From: Minisyncoccota bacterium
GTDB lineage: Bacteria; Patescibacteriota; Minisyncoccia; Phycocordibacterales; CAJQIN01
Assembly (NCBI GenBank): GCA_905478465.1
Contig: CAJQIN010000002.1
Location: 88,312 to 152,311, forward strand
Reading direction: 5' to 3'
DNA: 64,000 nt
The position numbers were made by a program, and so were the translations under genes. The notes under the pieces were generated by a model. That model did not search any database. It was not told the origin of the DNA and was given only the letters and a program-made list of their open reading frames with translations. This document shows positions 40,143 through 63,050 of the stretch, in pieces. Numbering within the stretch: position 1 is the stretch's first letter; every line of letters starts with the position of its first letter.

Positions 40143-41501
40143 TTGTTAATTATGAATGAAAAACAACTTTGGGATAAAGTATTGGTAGAGGTGGAGCTTA
40201 GTATTTCTAAACCAAACTTCAATACTTGGTTTAAAGATACATTCATCTCAAAAATTGACGGGGGAATGGTACATGTAGGTATTCCAAATGCTTTTGCACG
40301 TGAATGGCTTTCAACTAAATACCATAGCTTCTTGTTAAAAACTCTTCGCACACTCTCATCCGAGGTTAGGGGAATTGAATATTGTGTATCAAAACTAAAC
40401 CCACACCAGAAACAAGAGGCAGAAATTCATACAAATAACACTGAATCCAAAAACACCCTGCCTCTAGAAGAACACTATGTAAATAAAGAGAATAACCTTA
40501 ATCCACGATACACATTCGACACTTTTATTGTTGGACCATTTAATGAACTTGCTCACGCTGCAGCTCAAGCCATTGTGGAACGTCCTGGTATTGTCTACAA
40601 CCCTTTATTTATTTATGGAAATACCGGACATGGAAAAACCCACCTCATACAATCGATAGGGAACCAAATAAAAAAAGTTTTCGACAAGAAACAAGTATTC
40701 TATGTAACCTCTGAAAAATTTGCTCTCGACTACATAAACTCTGTCCAAACAGGAAAGGTAAATAATTTTAAAGAAAAATATCGAAAATATGACGTCCTCA
40801 TCATGGATGATATTCAATTTTTCGCAGGAAAAGAAAAATCTCAAGAAGAATTATTCCATCTTTTCAACTATCTCTACGACAATAACAAGCAAATTATCTT
40901 TTCTTCAGATAAACACCCTAATTACATAAACAATCTAGAAGAAAGACTTAAATCACGCTTTGGAGCGGGTATGATTGTTGATATTCCTACACCAGACCTT
41001 GAGTCTCGTGTGGCTATTCTAAAAAAGAAAGCTCTTGCAAGTAATATCATCCTCAAAGATGAGGTTATACAATTCCTTGCAAGTAATATCACCACAAACA
41101 TTCGAGAATTAGAGGGTGTTCTAAACACTCTGTCCTGCCAAACAGACCTCAAACAAAGAGATCTCAATATAAATGAGATTAAATTCCTCATTAAAGACAA
41201 TACCCAAAGACCAAAAACAAAATCTCCACAAGAAGTTGTTAAACTTATCTCTGATTATTACAACGTAGAGGAATCTGTTATCTATGAAAAAACTCGTCGA
41301 AAGGAAATCATTAAACCCCGACAAATTATCATGTATATTCTTCGTGAAGATTTCAACATCTCATACCCATCGATAGGGCAGAAGCTGGGGGGTCGTGATC
41401 ACACAACAGTTATCCACTCTTGTGAGAAAATAAAGCTCGAAGTTCAGAAGGATGATGTGTTGGCACAGGAGATAAATCAGATACGTTCGATGTTGGTATA
41501 A
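40143..41501 (+). CDS. dnaA: chromosomal replication initiator protein DnaA
   Basis: AAA+ Walker A GNTGHGKTHL, Walker B LIMDDIQF, and a C-terminal DNA-binding domain (GGRDHTTVIHSCEKI). Confidence 0.95.
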   Translation: MLIMNEKQLWDKVLVEVELSISKPNFNTWFKDTFISKIDGGMVHVGIPNAFAREWLSTKYHSFLLKTLRTLSSEVRGIEYCVSKLNPHQKQEAEIHTNNTESKNTLPLEEHYVNKENNLNPRYTFDTFIVGPFNELAHAAAQAIVERPGIVYNPLFIYGNTGHGKTHLIQSIGNQIKKVFDKKQVFYVTSEKFALDYINSVQTGKVNNFKEKYRKYDVLIMDDIQFFAGKEKSQEELFHLFNYLYDNNKQIIFSSDKHPNYINNLEERLKSRFGAGMIVDIPTPDLESRVAILKKKALASNIILKDEVIQFLASNITTNIRELEGVLNTLSCQTDLKQRDLNINEIKFLIKDNTQRPKTKSPQEVVKLISDYYNVEESVIYEKTRRKEIIKPRQIIMYILREDFNISYPSIGQKLGGRDHTTVIHSCEKIKLEVQKDDVLAQEINQIRSMLV

Positions 41502-41704
41502 GATGTGGATAGGGTTGGGGATAGAGTTGGATAAAAAACAGTTAATACAAAAGTTATCCACAAACAAAAGACTTATCCACAATTCATAAGAATTTATTTT
41601 CCCGAGAAACATTACAAACAAAAGACATTCTTAAGAAATCCACATATACACAGGTATAATAATAGAAGTAAGTATTTTAATAAGAATATAAATAATAACT
41701 ACAT
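41502..41704. promoter_or_regulatory. putative oriC: DnaA-box cluster plus AT-rich unwinding region between dnaA and dnaN
   Basis: Perfect TTATCCACA at 41554-41562 and 41573-41581. Near-matches TGTGGATAG (41504-41512) and AATCCACAT (about 41637-41645). A >50-bp A+T tract (41651-41704) follows. Confidence 0.6.
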
Positions 41705-42802
41705 ATGAAAGTAGAGTGTGTAAAAGAAAAAATACAAGAAGCTGTTTCGAAAGCAGAAAAGGTAACGGGGAAACATCTAACCCTGCCAATTCTTTCGTAC
41801 ATCATTTTTGAAGCAACAAAAGAAAGTTTGATTATCAAAGCAACAAACCTTGATGTTGGAGTTGAGATCAATGTTCCATGTAAAGTTTTCGAAGAGGGTG
41901 TTGTGGCTGTACCCGGATCAGTATTTAGTTCTCTTCTTTCAAATCTAACAAATCAGAAGGTTGTTCTGGAAACACAAGAACAAACACTTTTAGTTTCAAC
42001 CGAAACAAGCTCCACAACAATCAAAACGGTACCTCATGACGACTTTCCTAGTATACCGAAGTCATCAAGTCAGGAATCTTTTTCCGTGCACTCAGAGTCA
42101 TTTATCGAGGGAATCAAATCTGTTTGGTATGCAGCAGCTGTTTCAAGTATGAAACCAGAATTATCTAGTGTTTTTGTAACTCACAATGAAGATAATATTA
42201 TTTTTGTAGGAACAGATTCATTCCGTTTGGCAGAAAGACATATTCGAGTAAAAAAAATAAAAGATTTTCCTAACATTCTCATCCCGGTAAAAAATATTCC
42301 AGACATTATTAAAATACTCGAAGGTATTTCTGAAGATGTTGAATTGTATATAGCAGAAGATCAGATGTTGATTAAAACACAAGATATAGAGCTAGTATCC
42401 CGTCTTGTTGACGGATCTTTTCCTGATTACAAACAAATTATCCCTGCAGAAAAAACCACATCAGTGACTGTTTTGAAGAAGGATTTATTGCATGGTCTAA
42501 AAACTGCAAATATTTTCTCAAACAAATTCAATCAAATACACTTGATGGTTAATCCTGAAGCAAAAATATTTTCTTGTGATACGCAAAATACTGATGTGGG
42601 AGAAAACACTACACACATAGACGCTGTATTGAAAGGGGATACTGTAGAATTGAATTTTAATTATAAATATATTGTTGATTGTTTTCAGTCAGTAGATGGG
42701 GATTCTGTAGCATTAGATTTTAATGGGTCTAATAAGCCGGTGGTGATTCGTGATATTTCAAACCCATTGTTCTTGTATTTGGTTATGCCTATGTCTCGTT
42801 AA
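41705..42802 (+). CDS. dnaN: DNA polymerase III beta sliding clamp
   Basis: 365 aa with the three-domain clamp layout, directly downstream of dnaA and oriC. Confidence 0.9.
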   Translation: MKVECVKEKIQEAVSKAEKVTGKHLTLPILSYIIFEATKESLIIKATNLDVGVEINVPCKVFEEGVVAVPGSVFSSLLSNLTNQKVVLETQEQTLLVSTETSSTTIKTVPHDDFPSIPKSSSQESFSVHSESFIEGIKSVWYAAAVSSMKPELSSVFVTHNEDNIIFVGTDSFRLAERHIRVKKIKDFPNILIPVKNIPDIIKILEGISEDVELYIAEDQMLIKTQDIELVSRLVDGSFPDYKQIIPAEKTTSVTVLKKDLLHGLKTANIFSNKFNQIHLMVNPEAKIFSCDTQNTDVGENTTHIDAVLKGDTVELNFNYKYIVDCFQSVDGDSVALDFNGSNKPVVIRDISNPLFLYLVMPMSR

Positions 42803-52347: not shown

Positions 52348-52827
52348 TTAAGAGTTTTCTATGAAGCGAGTAGCCTCACAAGTTAACCCTATAGCAATAG
52401 CATCATACTCATCATCATGTTTGATTTCTTTTGAAATGGTAATGATTTTAGGAATCATTTTAATGATTTGAACTTTAGTACTTCTCCCATGTCCCGTGAC
52501 CGCAATTTTAATCTCTGCAGGGCTAAATTCTCTAATAATAAGATTGGCACAGGATGCTTCATATAGAATAACTCCACGCGCTTCAGCTACGGCGAGAGCT
52601 GTTTTCGCATTACTTCCCCAAAATAGTTTTTCAATTGCTAGTACTTCTGGTTTGTATTTTTTGATAACTTTCTGTAATTCTTGCCCAAGAGCTTTTAACC
52701 TCTCTCCATGAGAGAGTTCTTTAGATGTTTCAAAACAGTCTGAATATAAAAGAGAAGTATTCTCGAGTACTGCAATACCAAGACGTCCATATCCTGGATC
52801 AATGGCTAGAATTTTTGTATTAGACAG
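52348..52827 (-). CDS. ruvC: crossover junction endodeoxyribonuclease RuvC
   Basis: ILAIDPGYGRLGIAV N-terminus with the catalytic Asp. Start taken at the internal M (159 aa); a longer in-frame extension to 52902 would overlap yebC. Confidence 0.8.
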   Translation of the reverse strand: MSNTKILAIDPGYGRLGIAVLENTSLLYSDCFETSKELSHGERLKALGQELQKVIKKYKPEVLAIEKLFWGSNAKTALAVAEARGVILYEASCANLIIREFSPAEIKIAVTGHGRSTKVQIIKMIPKIITISKEIKHDDEYDAIAIGLTCEATRFIENS

Positions 52828-53350
52828 CATTGGTATAGGTTTCCTGGACATCGTCATTGTCTTCAAGTTCCTCGAGTACTTTGCTAAGTTTCTCTCCGTC
52901 AATTTCAGAAATCTCTACTGTTGTAGTTGCTGTCCATTCTCCATGTTCGTGTACAAATGCCCATGTGGCAGAACCACTTTGCGCAAGTTCAAGTCCGTTT
53001 TTTGAAAGAATATGTCGTATTTCTGCTGCTGTACGGTTATTGTTGTCGGTAAGACCTTCTATAATAATAGCCACACCTCCTGGACCATACGCTTCGTATG
53101 TTACTGGATTCATAGCAGCTCCTGTATCACTAGAAGCTTTTTTGACAGCTCGTTCAATGTTCTCACTAGGGAGGTTCATTTTTCGAGCTTTTTCAATAGC
53201 TGCTTTAAGACTAGGAGATTCCATGTTTCCACCAGCTTTCTTGGCTTCTACTGTAATGAGTCGATTTAATTTTGTGAATACTTTACTTCGAGCTTGGTCA
53301 GTAGCAGCTTTTTTGTGTTTGATCTTTGACCATTTATTGTGTCCTGACAT
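52820..53350 (-). CDS. YebC/PmpR-family DNA-binding regulator (short form)
   Basis: MSGHNKWSKIKHKKA N-terminus typical of YebC. Sits between ruvB and ruvC. Confidence 0.75.
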   Translation of the reverse strand: MSGHNKWSKIKHKKAATDQARSKVFTKLNRLITVEAKKAGGNMESPSLKAAIEKARKMNLPSENIERAVKKASSDTGAAMNPVTYEAYGPGGVAIIIEGLTDNNNRTAAEIRHILSKNGLELAQSGSATWAFVHEHGEWTATTTVEISEIDGEKLSKVLEELEDNDDVQETYTNAV

Positions 53351-53412: not shown

Positions 53413-54405
53413 CTAGTAGTTTTCTATATGTTGCCGGCCTTTTTCTGTAATCTTTCTTCCTCTAGGGGTTCTTTCTAGAAAACCAATTTGTATTAAATAG
53501 GGTTCATTAAACTCTGCAAGAGTTCCTTCATCTTCAGATAAAGAAACTGCTAGGGTATTGAGTCCAACTGGACCACCTTGAAACTTTTCTATAAGTGCAG
53601 AAAGAAGATCTCTGTCTGCGGTAGAGAGACCGAGAGGGTCTATACCAAGAAGATTTAAAGATTCTATAACTGTATGCAAGTCTACAGAATCTTTTTTATT
53701 CACTTGTGCATAGTCACGACATCTTTTGAGAAAATGGTTTGCTGTACGTGGTGTGTATCTACTTCTACGAGCAATTTCCACAAGAGCATCTTTATCTATT
53801 GAAATACCAAGTATCCCAGCTGACTTCTGTACGATTTGTTGAATTTCTTCCTCTGTATAAAATACCATTCGATGTACACCTCCTGAAAAACGAGAGCGAA
53901 GTGGGGAAGAAAGAAGTGAAATTCTGGTGGTGGCACCTATAAGTGTGAAAGGAGGGAGGTCTAATTGGATACTTCGGGCCGATGGACCCTTTCCAATTAT
54001 GATGTCTAGAGAGCCAGATTCCATAGCGGGGTAGAGGAGCTCCTCTACTGCTTTATTGAGTCTGTGAATCTCGTCTATGAACAGGATATCCCCAGGTGTC
54101 AGATTGGTCAAAACAGAGGCAAGATCACCTACTTTTTCAATAGCTGGCCCTGAAGTCACTTTCATCTGCACATCGAGCTCATGAGATATCAAATGGGCTA
54201 AAGTTGTTTTTCCTAGCCCTGGTGGACCATAAAAGAGTAAATGCTCTGGAGGATGTTCTCTCTCTTTGGCAGCTCTAAGAAGGATATCGAGGTTCTGTTT
54301 TATCGATGTTTGTCCAATATAATTCTCCCATGTTTTGGGTCGAAGCATCTTATCGAGGAATTGACCCTCTGGACGCTCTGTGGTATCTTTTTCTTTCGTC
54401 TGCAT
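53413..54405 (-). CDS. ruvB: Holliday junction branch migration ATPase RuvB
   Basis: Walker A GPPGLGKTTLA, Walker B LFIDEIHR, and a C-terminal winged helix. Confidence 0.95.
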   Translation of the reverse strand: MQTKEKDTTERPEGQFLDKMLRPKTWENYIGQTSIKQNLDILLRAAKEREHPPEHLLFYGPPGLGKTTLAHLISHELDVQMKVTSGPAIEKVGDLASVLTNLTPGDILFIDEIHRLNKAVEELLYPAMESGSLDIIIGKGPSARSIQLDLPPFTLIGATTRISLLSSPLRSRFSGGVHRMVFYTEEEIQQIVQKSAGILGISIDKDALVEIARRSRYTPRTANHFLKRCRDYAQVNKKDSVDLHTVIESLNLLGIDPLGLSTADRDLLSALIEKFQGGPVGLNTLAVSLSEDEGTLAEFNEPYLIQIGFLERTPRGRKITEKGRQHIENY

Positions 54406-54454
54406 AGTATTGTATATATCTTAGCACGAACGAGTGACAGGAGTGTATAAGCAA

Positions 54455-54555
54455 AAAAGAGCTTGACAAATCTGAAACCCTATGTTAGTATATACACATC
54501 TTCAATACAGGAAGATATAAGAGAGTCTTAAGTATTTCTAGACTCTTTTTCTATC
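54455..54555 (+). promoter_or_regulatory. sigma70-like promoter (TTGACA N17 TAGTAT) followed about 35 nt later by a terminator-like hairpin (agagtct-N11-agactct-TTTTT)
   Basis: Seen directly. No ORF lies downstream on this strand. Confidence 0.35.
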
Positions 54556-54574
54556 ACTGATCTTTTTATCGAAA

Positions 54575-54800
54575 ACATAAACCTCTAAGCAACGTGGTCT
54601 TTTGATCTCCTAGTCTTATGCCGAGGATAGTCTGGTACGTATTCTTGTAATACGTGGCTGAACTTCTCCTTAGATGTAAGATTTAACTTTTAGTACGCTT
54701 ATTAAAAGTGTTGCTTCGAGGTTTAAGTCTTGGATAAAACCTCAATACGCCTAATTATTCATAATCCCCTTGCATACGCAAGGGGATTATTTGTTTGAAC
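54575..54800 (+). ncRNA. candidate structured small RNA of unknown class
   Basis: A long-range helix (ctctaagcaac at 54583-54593 with gttgcttcgag at 54709-54719) encloses two hairpins (acgtatt-cttgt-aatacgt; gaggttt-N12-aaacctc). It ends with a 12-bp-stem terminator (aatccccttgc-atac-gcaaggggatt plus T-rich tail, 54761-54797). No ORF; lies between convergent genes. Confidence 0.3.
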
Positions 54801-54837
54801 ACAAGTTGAGATGTTAGTAAAATATTTTTTTTATTTT

Positions 54838-56511
54838 TTATTCATCCAAATCAAGAACTCTTCGTATTTCTTCTAGTGTAGTAACACCATTTAAAACTTT
54901 TATTATTCCATCTTGTTGCATAGTGAGGATTCCTTGACCCTCGGCGGCTTTCCAAATATCTCTTTCTCCAGGATTGTCTTGTAGTGCTGTTTCTATTTTT
55001 TCATCAGTTAATATTCCTTCGAAGACACCAATTCTGCCTTTATACCCATTAGATATTTCTCCTTCTGGTATTTCTGGTACCCACATTTTATCCGTCTGTA
55101 CTCCTTCTAAATATGTTTTGTCTACAATGCTGTCAAGAATTCTCAGGATAGTTTCTCGGTCTTTCCCTTCAAGGGGTATTTCTTTTTTAAACTGAGGATC
55201 AATCTTCCTAACAAGACGTTGAGCCAAAGCTAGGTTGATTGCTGAGGTGATGACTTTTGCATTTACACCAAGATCGATAAGGCGTGGAAATGTTCCTGCT
55301 GCATTGTTGGTGTGAAGGGTAGAGAATACAAGGTGACCGGTAAGAGCAGCGTTCACTGCAATCTCTGCTGTCTCTGTGTCTCGAATTTCACCGACCATGA
55401 TCACATCAGGGTCTTGTCTAAGTGCTGCTCGAAGACCAGACAGGAAAGTGTATCCTTGTTTTGTATTTGTTTGTGTCTGAACAATTCCATCGAGATGGTA
55501 TTCAATTGGGTTTTCAATGGTAAGAATTTTTGTTTCTGTTGAATAGATTTTTTTCAATATGGAATAAAGTGTAGTTGTCTTTCCTGAACCTGTCGGACCT
55601 GTGGTTAAGACCATTCCATTAGGTTTCTTTATTTCATGTTCAATGATTTTGAACAGTCTTTCATTAATACCCATGTCTTCCAATGGAACATTGATGGATT
55701 TTGGATTAAGAACACGAAGCACTACGGATTCATTGTATGCTCCAGGAAGTACTGATGTACGAATTTCGATATCTGTATCAGAAAGACGAATAGTGAATCT
55801 TCCATCTTGAGCTGCTTTCTTCAGGTTAAGCTTCAGGCCTGAAAGAAGTTTGATACGAGATAATAGAAGTTGGTATGTATCATTGTCGAGTTGGGCAATA
55901 TCAACAAGTACACCATCTAAACGGTACCTCAAGCGCACATCATCTTTTTCTGGTTCAGTATGAAGGTCAGATGCTTTTGTTGAGAGTGCTCCAGCAACAA
56001 TAATTTCCAAAATTCTAGAAACACGATATCGACGTTCCATATGCAACGTTTCCTCGATCATATTTTTTATATCCAAAAGAGAATGTTCTTCTTTTAGGAA
56101 AATTTGAATTTGGTCACTAGAAATATCGAGTCCTCCCGCTGTCTCAAAAGAAAGAGACAGGTCTTTGTAGCGACTCCAGGCTTTATGAAGGCTTGCTGTA
56201 GATACCATGAACAAGATTGGTTCAAATCCTTTCTCTTTTATTTTTTCAATAGCCTGAATCGTCTTTTGACTATGTGGAGCAAGAACACCAATTTGAATTT
56301 TTTTATCGATCCGATTAAAAGGAGCAACATTTGCTGCTTTTGCATCTTCTTCTGTGATGGCTCGTAGTGCATCTTGATTTATTGGAACAGGGCCGAGGTC
56401 TAGATAGGGAATACCGTATTTAGAAGATAGAATTTGAACAGAGTCTTCCTCTTCTTTTTTTCGAAGTTCATCAAGATCTCTATTTTGTTTTTCTTCATTA
56501 AATTCAATCAT
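54838..56511 (-). CDS. pilB: type IV pilus assembly ATPase PilB (GspE family)
   Basis: Walker A GPTGSGKTTTLYS and the Asp/His boxes. The 557-aa length fits PilB/GspE. Confidence 0.9.
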   Translation of the reverse strand: MIEFNEEKQNRDLDELRKKEEEDSVQILSSKYGIPYLDLGPVPINQDALRAITEEDAKAANVAPFNRIDKKIQIGVLAPHSQKTIQAIEKIKEKGFEPILFMVSTASLHKAWSRYKDLSLSFETAGGLDISSDQIQIFLKEEHSLLDIKNMIEETLHMERRYRVSRILEIIVAGALSTKASDLHTEPEKDDVRLRYRLDGVLVDIAQLDNDTYQLLLSRIKLLSGLKLNLKKAAQDGRFTIRLSDTDIEIRTSVLPGAYNESVVLRVLNPKSINVPLEDMGINERLFKIIEHEIKKPNGMVLTTGPTGSGKTTTLYSILKKIYSTETKILTIENPIEYHLDGIVQTQTNTKQGYTFLSGLRAALRQDPDVIMVGEIRDTETAEIAVNAALTGHLVFSTLHTNNAAGTFPRLIDLGVNAKVITSAINLALAQRLVRKIDPQFKKEIPLEGKDRETILRILDSIVDKTYLEGVQTDKMWVPEIPEGEISNGYKGRIGVFEGILTDEKIETALQDNPGERDIWKAAEGQGILTMQQDGIIKVLNGVTTLEEIRRVLDLDE

Positions 56512-56598: not shown

Positions 56599-57006
56599 TT
56601 ACCGACTTCGGACTCCAATTTGGAATCCGAAATCATTTGTTTTAACCCCAATACGCACCGAGGTACCCGAGGGTCGTGGGACGGAATAACATCCGTTTCG
56701 ACGAGGTTCGCAGTCTTGTTTAGTCTGATGAGAGAATCCTGTTCTTCCAGAATACCCTGTCCTCGCTACCGGATGTGTACTGGTTTGTGTCTGAATTTTT
56801 TCAGACACAAGATTACCACAGGAATCATACACACGCCTGACGTGTGTTTCCGTGCGTACTCGGGTGACTTTTTGGGTTTTTCCGAAGGTGCTTTCTACGT
56901 ACTGACGGTCCTGCCGCCACTCTCTCCCGTAGTTATCCGCCTGAACAGCGGAAACAAGGCTAAAAACAAACAAAATTGTAAGGAACGATAATGACTTAGT
57001 GAGCAT
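56599..57006 (-). CDS. hypothetical secreted Arg/Thr/Gly-rich protein encoded in an unusually GC-rich segment
   Basis: Strong SD (AAAGGAG 8 nt before the ATG at 57006). Signal peptide MLTKSLSFLTILFVFSLVSAVQA, 4 Cys. A hairpin plus T6 terminator lies just downstream at about 56540-56580. Confidence 0.5.
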   Translation of the reverse strand: MLTKSLSFLTILFVFSLVSAVQADNYGREWRQDRQYVESTFGKTQKVTRVRTETHVRRVYDSCGNLVSEKIQTQTSTHPVARTGYSGRTGFSHQTKQDCEPRRNGCYSVPRPSGTSVRIGVKTNDFGFQIGVRSR

Positions 57007-57114
57007 AGTAATGCTCCTTTCGTGTTTAGAGTTAGTCTTTAAGTCTGTATTAATACTATCACCTTTCTTGATAAAAGTCAATAGCTCATTCATGATACAA
57101 TATACCCACTACAT

Positions 57115-62509: not shown

Positions 62510-62612
62510 GAAATTACTATAGCGTAAAATAAAAATAGAATATATTGACACACTCTATTTATAATGATATTTTTCGATTAGAAATAGTGTTCAAACATGA
62601 AAGGAACATCGT

Positions 62613-63050
62613 ATGAACAAAAACACAGCCAGGGTGATTATTATATGTGTGTGGGCATTAGCGGCTATTATGTACCTTGGAAGATCTTCCAGGGTTAAAA
62701 ACCAACAACCTGAATCTGCTCAAGAACAGACTCTTCCCGAAGATATTTCTAAGGAGGTTAAGTTTGTAGGTAGTGGTATCACACCCACACTGGATAAGTT
62801 CCTGAATACTTCACCAGGCACCATTATGATGTATGATTTCATTGATGGTGGCTGGGAGAATGGCGGAAAGTTTCTTCTTGTTATTTCGAGTAATGAAGAA
62901 GAGGTAATAGGATTAAATACTCAGGGTAAAAAAATTAGTATTTCCACGAAAAATGTGGCATACATCTATGACCCAAAAATTGTTCCACAAGAGTATTTAT
63001 ATGTTTCCCACACATTCAATGTTCACTTAGCAAAAAGTCTTGCTGAGTAA
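62613..63050 (+). CDS. hypothetical membrane-anchored protein
   Basis: N-terminal TM helix (VIIICVWALAAIMYL). No recognised domain. Confidence 0.4.
   Translation: MNKNTARVIIICVWALAAIMYLGRSSRVKNQQPESAQEQTLPEDISKEVKFVGSGITPTLDKFLNTSPGTIMMYDFIDGGWENGGKFLLVISSNEEEVIGLNTQGKKISISTKNVAYIYDPKIVPQEYLYVSHTFNVHLAKSLAE

Follow-up and report, generated by a model that had tools for sequence, protein, structure and literature searches.

A probable conserved RNA gene between ruvB and pilB

The stretch analyzed here (64,000 nucleotides of contig CAJQIN010000002.1 from a Minisyncoccota bacterium, hereinafter referred to as the window) contains a 432-bp gap (54406-54837) between a ruvB gene and a pilB-type gene, both on the - strand. 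A structured non-coding RNA (ncRNA) is likely encoded in this gap, on the + strand and by a gene of its own, and belongs to a family that is absent from Rfam. An earlier note, made from the letters alone, had proposed a structured + strand RNA delimited by a promoter and a terminator at this place; sequence conservation, covariation, and a + strand promoter conserved among relatives support that proposal. Of the results that the note had named as refuting, neither a lack of conservation and covariation among relatives nor helices explained by the pilB and ruvB terminators alone was observed. The properties by which a new structured ncRNA family is operationally recognized, i.e., presence in many species, covariation, transcription signals of its own, and no match to a known family, were all observed.

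The nearest species-level genomes were Paceibacteria/Parcubacteria metagenome-assembled genomes with RuvB identities of 63-73%, which carry names such as Nomurabacteria, Campbellbacteria, Zambryskibacteria, Yonathbacteria, Taylorbacteria, and Minisyncoccia. An nhmmer search with the gap as the query matched the region immediately ahead of ruvB in dozens of these relatives, always covering 54562-54740. A covariance model (R1) was built from a MAFFT alignment of 26 species. It matched the window at 54560-54743 (+) with 137.4 bits (E = 3.7e-31; the E-values of R1 are rough, as its calibration was shortened). Among other Paceibacteria, R1 matched 77 of 80 RuvB loci at the species level, with 64-159 bits. 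Of the other three loci, L046 lacked upstream sequence, and L022 and L088 had no convincing copy with the search filters off. Two of the 79 usable RuvB loci were thereby left with no recognizable copy, which could be due to loss or strong divergence; the sole match in L088, with the expected position and strand, scored just 7 bits (55% GC). Metagenome contigs were also scanned, independently of ruvB, with the pattern AAATCTCTAAGC-N105-135-GCTTAGAGATTT, which returned at least 120 loci, and the first 100 among those listed all had a full-length R1 match. In total, the core was found at the same place in ~175 other genomes or metagenome loci of Paceibacteria, which belong to the candidate phyla radiation (CPR).

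The position relative to ruvB was constant. ruvB was located directly 5' of the RNA on the opposite strand, 28-450 nt away, in all 93 pattern-fetched loci with enough flanking sequence among the matches listed, and it likewise adjoined the RNA in all 77 RuvB-fetched loci that carry it. On the 3' side, a convergent pilB homologue was present in 136 of 157 loci. No second copy of the element was found in the 64-kb window. Because of this single copy and the one syntenic position, the element is regarded as vertically inherited at a fixed position and not as a mobile repeat.

Structure of the core

The conserved part of the gap folds into a compact structure with the following components:

54564..54739, + strand: conserved core RNA of ~176 nt with a closed four-way junction (covariance model, covariation, and folding)
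54564-54593 / 54710-54739, + strand: closing stem P1, ~27-30 bp (30-nt arms, 87% complementary)
54577-54593 / 54710-54726, + strand: inner 17 bp of P1, the best conserved part (AUAAAUCUCUAAGCAAU / AUUGCUUAGAGAUUUAU)
54594-54609, + strand: P2, a small 6-bp hairpin of free sequence (GGUC/GAUC at 54596-54607)
54612-54683, + strand: P3, a long arm of 72 nt and ~30 bp (folding)
54624-54627 / 54667-54670, + strand: AGGA paired with UCCU in P3
54632-54635 / 54658-54661, + strand: CUGG opposite CUGA in P3
54637-54655, + strand: apical hairpin of P3 (54637-54643 / 54649-54655)
54686-54709, + strand: P4, a 9-bp hairpin (54686-54695 / 54700-54709; ACUUUUGGU...AUUAAAAGU)

The + strand at 54495-54800 had a folding energy of -99.9 kcal/mol (z = -8.1), and none of 100 shuffled sequences was as stable. 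The four helices meet with 0-3 unpaired nt per joint. In P1, the outer 7-8 bp are variable and covarying, and a 2-nt internal loop separates them from the inner 17 bp, in which the sequence as well as the pairing is conserved. The consensus of P3 consists, in order, of a variable lower helix, the AGGA/UCCU helix, a conserved C/UA internal loop, 4-5 variable bp, and a CUGG/CUGG step. The latter forms a tandem U·G/G·U and is conserved in sequence, as is the AGGA/UCCU helix with its C/UA loop. The loop of the apical hairpin is mostly of the UUCG or CUUG type. The MAFFT alignment of lower and apical P3 was too poor for column-wise counts, so per-sequence folding was used for these parts; P3a and the apical hairpin formed in nearly every homologue examined.

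The long-range helix that the earlier note had given as 10/11 bp is real but was under-called, its arms being 30 nt long, and the two 7-bp hairpins that it had placed inside this helix were recovered as the apical hairpin of P3 and as P4. A further 7-bp hairpin of that note is present at 54718-54724 / 54737-54743, but it competes with P1. The heptamer AAACCTC occurs as a direct repeat at 54579-54585 and 54737-54743, and GAGGTTT at 54718-54724 can pair with either copy, i.e., in P1 or in the local 3' hairpin. No 3' flank matching the hairpin 54718-54743 was seen in the homologues read by eye, and this alternative hairpin is probably incidental. Overall, the coordinates of the earlier note differ from the re-measured ones by up to 8 bases.

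Covariation

Base pairing was evaluated in two alignments: the unfitted MAFFT alignment of 26 species and a model-fitted alignment of 97 distinct sequences. In the unfitted alignment, standard pairs occupied 89.9% of the cells versus 75.9% in shuffled data (none of 500 shuffles as high). The corresponding values in the fitted alignment were 93.1% and 80.6%, with 12 invariant P1 pairs there being imposed by the search pattern. Slid-register controls reached at most 51% (unfitted) and 51.4% (fitted). Compensatory changes were found in 39 of 51 pairs in the unfitted alignment and in 34 of 51 in the fitted one, and the doubly changed cells of the fitted alignment numbered 641 versus 185. The largest counts thus come from the model-fitted alignment, and the unfitted alignment agrees with it. 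In P2, all six pairs showed compensatory changes, and 7-8 of the 9 bp of P4 covaried.

Promoter, leader, and terminator

Signals for transcription on the + strand were identified on both sides of the core:

54463..54491, + strand: predicted sigma-70-type promoter of the RNA, matching 10 of 12 consensus positions, with a TG-extended -10 (-35 TTGACA at 54463-54468, 17-nt spacer, TG at 54483-54484, -10 TAGTAT at 54486-54491)
54498..54563, + strand: variable 5' leader with a terminator- or attenuator-like hairpin and U5
54519-54528 / 54540-54549, + strand: arms of the leader hairpin, with T5 at 54546-54550 (inverted-repeat search and folding)
54761..54797, + strand: predicted intrinsic terminator of the RNA, with a 13-bp stem (ATAATCCCCTTGC/GCAAGGGGATTAT, 54761-54790), a 4-nt loop, and the tail TTTGTTTG

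Transcription is predicted to start near 54498. The strict pattern TTGACA-N14-16-TGNTANNNT occurred twice in the 64-kb window versus 0.21 occurrences expected; the sole other match, at 62545-62573 (+), lies ~40 nt ahead of an open reading frame (ORF) of 145 aa (62613-63050). Among the homologues, TTGA[CT]A-N14-16-TGNTANNNT was found within 200 nt 5' of the core on the + strand in 139 of 163 unique loci, and on the - strand in none of the 163. A further 17 of these loci carry the pattern minus the TG only.

The distance from the predicted start to P1 ranged from -3 to 171 nt in the homologues (median 39 nt). Leader length thus varies widely, and the leader is therefore placed outside the conserved RNA. 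The leader hairpin of the window was kept out of a simple terminator scan by its 11-nt loop. Of 95 leaders with a length of 30 nt or more, 29 contained a hairpin with a U-run, versus 6 of 95 reverse-complement controls. This hairpin is thus enriched and not universal; where present, it may attenuate expression. Terminator-like hairpins separate from the core followed it in 53 of 163 homologous loci, and a U-run directly after P1 was found in 28 of 165 loci on the + strand versus 2 of 165 on the other strand.

Most of what the earlier note had described in these flanks holds after correction. Its promoter (TTGACA N17 TAGTAT) is present, but at 54463-54491 and not at 54455-54487, and its short hairpin plus T5 at 54519-54550 and not at 54521-54555. 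The terminator at 54761-54797 was found as given, with a stem of 13 bp instead of 12. The suggested arrangement of an attenuator followed by a small RNA is supported in part, by the enrichment of leader hairpins, which are not universal in leaders of ~0-170 nt. The statement that the gap contains no ORF of more than 10 codons is correct for ATG starts; mechanically called TTG ORFs of 20-22 aa do exist.

A more ordinary explanation would combine a pilB terminator, a ruvB promoter, and chance hairpins, or would invoke a mobile repeat such as a miniature inverted-repeat transposable element. The hairpin 54761-54790 indeed follows the pilB stop codon at a distance of 48 nt and may double as a pilB terminator on the - strand, where its tail (GAAUAAUU) is poor in U, and the element has terminal inverted repeats. 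This explanation is nevertheless almost negligible in view of the folding z-score and of the conservation, with covariation, in ~175 genomes at one syntenic site; the single copy in 64 kb and the fixed position in the 93 checkable loci further speak against a mobile repeat. Intrinsic terminators alone were likewise rejected, as just 54761-54790 can be read in this way, possibly shared with pilB, and the core consists of several conserved helices that covary.

The promoter region also bears on a local role, in which the very strong RNA promoter or a leader antisense to the 5' end of ruvB would control ruvB through promoter occlusion or transcriptional interference, with the core mainly stabilizing or terminating the transcript. 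In the window, the two promoters are arranged back-to-back and share one -35 site (TTGACA at 54463-54468 on the + strand, TTGTCA at 54469-54464 on the - strand), and ruvB is the divergent neighbour, across a gap of 28-450 nt, in every checkable locus among the matches listed. Part of the clade has a - strand TGCTATAA(T) -10 box abutting P1, and the 5' ends of the two transcripts would overlap there. However, interference does not require a ~175-nt four-way junction with sequence-conserved helices and a tandem wobble, the core never overlaps ruvB, and the promoter geometry, back-to-back or face-to-face depending on the genome, is not conserved. As pilB is kept in 136 of 157 loci too, synteny alone may explain the linkage. 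A local role is therefore considered rather unlikely.

The - strand -10 box just mentioned appears as the motif TTATAGCAT just 5' of P1 in nine loci (L031, L034, L038, L039, L043, L050, L052, L064, and L066). Read on the reverse strand, it is TGCTATAA(T), an extended -10 box directed toward ruvB and abutting P1. As judged from these motifs, the ruvB and RNA transcripts of such loci would overlap at their 5' ends, with the promoters face-to-face.

Strand of the RNA

RNAalifold on the strand-neutral MAFFT alignment predicted 42 pairs on the + strand (-39.4 kcal/mol), with 108 G·U versus 33 A·C, and 24 pairs on the - strand (-29.0 kcal/mol), all of which were in P1. One wobble in P3 is conserved as U·G in 21 of 26 sequences of the unfitted alignment and in 69 of 97 of the fitted one, and G·U occurs in 41-54 of 97 sequences at three positions of P4. 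Conserved G·U pairs on the + strand become A·C mismatches on the - strand, so that P2 and P4 disappear there together with most of P3. On the basis of the wobble pairs, the RNAalifold result, the strand of the promoter, and the U-runs and terminators after P1, the RNA is assigned to the + strand and is thus not a ruvB leader.

A riboswitch-like 5' leader of ruvB, or a pilB-ruvB intercistronic element, on the - strand had to be considered because the element is always immediately upstream of ruvB, and because stable folds were obtained for the - strand too (z = -6.2 in the window, mean -7.4 in homologues). Nevertheless, only P1 survives in the consensus fold of the strand that would be the mRNA, the strict promoter is found in 0 of 163 loci on that strand versus 139 on the other, and the U-runs after P1 show the same bias, which makes this explanation very unlikely. 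Riboswitches and leaders of repair genes resemble the present RNA in their invariant place upstream of one gene, and differ from it in that the RNA lies on the opposite strand with its own promoter and terminator.

An element acting at the DNA level, such as a cruciform or single-stranded DNA structure serving as a Holliday-junction-like Ruv site or an origin-associated element, is suggested by the long inverted repeat beside the gene for a Holliday-junction helicase and by DnaA-box-like sequences found on either side of the element in some homologues. G·T wobbles are tolerated in single-stranded DNA too. The strand-asymmetric wobble pairs speak against a symmetric cruciform, the conserved promoter and terminators delimit a transcript, and the probable origin of replication (oriC) of the window lies 13 kb off, between genes read as dnaA and dnaN; such a role appears highly improbable.

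Comparison with known RNA families

At the gathering threshold, Rfam 15 matched only five tRNAs in the whole window, and in E-value mode the gap gave only sub-threshold noise, i.e., PyrR (28 bits), isrJ, and L10-leader, all driven by the terminator hairpin. E-value searches of 12 homologous loci returned no 6S, SRP, RNase P, Y RNA, or other plausible family. In particular, neither RF00013 nor 6S-Flavo matched at E <= 10 in the gap and these 12 loci (13 sequences). ARAGORN detected no tmRNA in the window. With no Rfam or ARAGORN match, tmRNA, RNase P RNA, SRP RNA, and tRNA were ruled out, in agreement with the earlier note, which had seen no hallmark motifs of the first three. Retron ncRNA, bridge RNA, and omega RNA were also discarded, the neighbouring genes encoding RuvB, YebC, RuvC, PilB, TsaE, and PolA instead of a reverse transcriptase, IS110, or IscB/TnpB.

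Lineage-restricted orphan ncRNAs such as raiA motif RNA, OLE, Bacteroidales-1, and Chloroflexi-1 are clade-specific, show strong covariation and a conserved neighbourhood, have their own promoter and terminator, and were of unknown function at discovery. The present RNA shares these traits, but it matched none of these families in Rfam 15, through which the comparison was made, and it occurs in Patescibacteria/CPR. The literature searches that were run found no papers on the ncRNA repertoire of CPR bacteria, and no report of 6S or any other ncRNA for Patescibacteria, Parcubacteria, or Paceibacteria.

Bacterial Y RNA (YrlA), of the Ro60 system, has a long stem that joins its 5' and 3' ends and combines a duplex of conserved sequence with a distal module of several branches. 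The RNA described here shares these traits, but it has no tRNA-like T-arm or D-arm motifs and no match to the Rfam YrlA model. No rsr gene was present among the genes annotated beside the element (ruvB, yebC, ruvC, pilB, tsaE, and polA); no dedicated rsr search was made.

Possible function

The RNA probably represents a new, vertically inherited housekeeping ncRNA family that binds protein. The mature species would be the stem-closed core, with the variable leader removed or irrelevant, and the long terminal stem P1 would protect the RNA ends. As an abundant housekeeping RNA, it would act in trans and bind a protein via the sequence-conserved duplex and the P3 motifs. This reading is supported by the helices, internal loop, and tandem wobble that are conserved in sequence, by the retention of the RNA across a minimal-genome lineage, and by the fact that nothing lies downstream on its strand to regulate. 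A trans-acting, protein-binding role is ranked well above any cis-acting reading. The RNA likely does something central in these cells, given that it is kept in nearly every sampled member, has a top-ranking promoter within the window, and is conserved down to the level of wobble pairs.

Several points weigh against this reading. The promoter, start site, and 3' end of the RNA are predictions; no gene for an RNA-binding protein is co-located. A cis relationship would account for the perfect linkage to ruvB more readily than a trans-acting RNA would. In addition, the minimum free energy was lower for the + strand in 166 of 175 homologues, but this preference is partly compositional (G+U) and carries little weight, the shuffled folding z-scores being nearly equal for the two strands (-8.0 for + versus -7.4 for -).

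The candidate partner that can be named most concretely is the RNA polymerase holoenzyme, for which the RNA would act as a 6S-like decoy. In this mechanism, P1 would mimic the downstream duplex and template a product RNA starting with 5'-AUUGCUUAGAG, and P3 would mimic the upstream (-35 side) duplex. By analogy with 6S, such a decoy role is tentatively put forward as a minor possibility. The RNA could accordingly be a Paceibacteria version of 6S, i.e., a homologue or analogue that sequesters sigma-70 polymerase through open-promoter mimicry and is released via a product RNA, an identity that we consider possible but doubtful. 6S RNA is described as a rod of ~200 nt in which two non-continuous helical arms surround a central bubble, and in 6S-1 of B. 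subtilis the 3' side of the bubble carries a hairpin (PMC8876501).

The core of 176 nt is indeed a rod, formed by the closing stem P1 and the 72-nt apical arm P3, with an 18-nt 5' side and with P4 as a 3'-side hairpin like that of 6S-1. It also has a strong housekeeping-type promoter and is clade-wide and single-copy in the window, and full-text searches found no report of a 6S RNA in candidate phyla. In contrast, the open central bubble of 6S is absent, and P2, which covaries, occupies the position of the template strand. The inner part of P1 is 17 uninterrupted bp and shows no B-form DNA mimicry through bulges. Sequence conservation is far above the 6S norm, the arms of 6S being irregular and poorly conserved, and the Rfam 6S models had no match at E <= 10. 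These differences count against the 6S-like part of the proposed function. The RNA therefore resembles 6S in outline, but two of three decisively testable 6S properties were not found, and it is not filed as 6S.

Compared with 6S (ssrS; RF00013), and especially with B. subtilis 6S-1, the similarities comprise a free-standing, strongly promoted gene of ~180 nt, a terminal closing stem with an apical stem-loop arm, a 3'-side hairpin, and probable trimming of a precursor to the stem-closed core. The differences are the closed four-way junction with its covarying 5'-side hairpin and the 17-bp conserved helix beside the junction. A new mode of action, either an RNA polymerase decoy with a closed junction or, more boldly, an RNA junction engaging RuvA, RuvB, or RuvC, is regarded as improbable. 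The idea of the Holliday-junction machinery arises because the RNA is permanently tied to ruvB; if it were true, recombination and repair capacity could be coupled to the transcription state.

Genomes are tiny in Paceibacteria and other CPR bacteria, nearly all of which are uncultured, and R1 and the scan pattern described above provide a searchable marker for an RNA of this lineage. The RNA is a candidate for a 6S-like function in a lineage from which the searches retrieved no 6S report. Should it prove to be a divergent form of 6S, the range of architectures accepted for 6S would become broader; otherwise, it would be a new RNA class. Further, the fixed pairing with ruvB is an unusual linkage between an ncRNA and a gene.

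DnaA-box-like sequences and the probable origin

In 35 of 165 loci versus ~1 expected, ATTATTCA occurred within 150 nt after the core. Its typical form is ATTATTCACAAAA-[GC hairpin]-TTTTGTGTATAAC (e.g., L029, L019, L062, L109, L168, and L090), and both conserved 9-mers, inverted relative to each other on the two sides of a terminator-like hairpin, match the DnaA-box consensus TTATNCACA. A degenerate copy of this motif is present in the window at 54753-54765.

A second type of cluster was found in the leaders of a sub-clade (L077, L080, L081, L074, L041, L044, L013, L063, L061, and L070). These leaders contain 3-5 clustered DnaA-box-like 9-mers (TTATCAACA, TATCCACA, TATACACA, TATGCACA), followed by a second, proximal -10 box of the TAGTATAAT type 10-25 nt before P1. 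This arrangement suggests that, in those genomes, the RNA may be transcribed from an alternative promoter or from one that responds to DnaA.

The probable chromosomal origin of the window is located at 41502-41704, between two + strand ORFs that were read by eye as dnaA (40143-41501, 452 aa) and dnaN (41705-42802, 365 aa). The spacer contains TTATCCACA twice (41554-41562 and 41573-41581) and additional boxes, TGTGGATAG near 41504 and ATCCACATATACACAGGTATAAT near 41640, and it coincides with the minimum of the cumulative GC skew at ~40-44 kb. With the probable oriC in the dnaA-dnaN spacer at ~41.5 kb, the idea that the element itself is an origin of replication was rejected in this genome.

Neighbouring genes

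The genes on either side of the gap, named ruvB and pilB in the earlier note, were confirmed by their Pfam domains:

53413-54405, - strand: ruvB (RuvB_N, AAA_lid_4, RuvB_C), divergent from the RNA, on its 5' side
54838-56511, - strand: pilB-type type IV pilus / T2SSE ATPase gene (T2SSE, MshEN), convergent on the 3' side of the RNA

The exact RuvB protein was also found on metagenome contigs of the same species. Other genes annotated near the element encode homologues of YebC and RuvC (after RuvB), TsaE, and PolA. The YebC/TACO1 homologue (52820-53350, -), located between ruvB and ruvC, is just 176 aa long, and its ORF overlaps that of ruvC (52348-52902, -). ruvA lies outside this cluster, a search of the window giving no significant match; in four homologous loci it was found ~12 kb from the RNA, i.e., not adjoining the element. 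Between pilB and tsaE, a 164-aa ORF (56599-57093, -) had no Pfam match and was also predicted as a gene on contig L001 of the same species.

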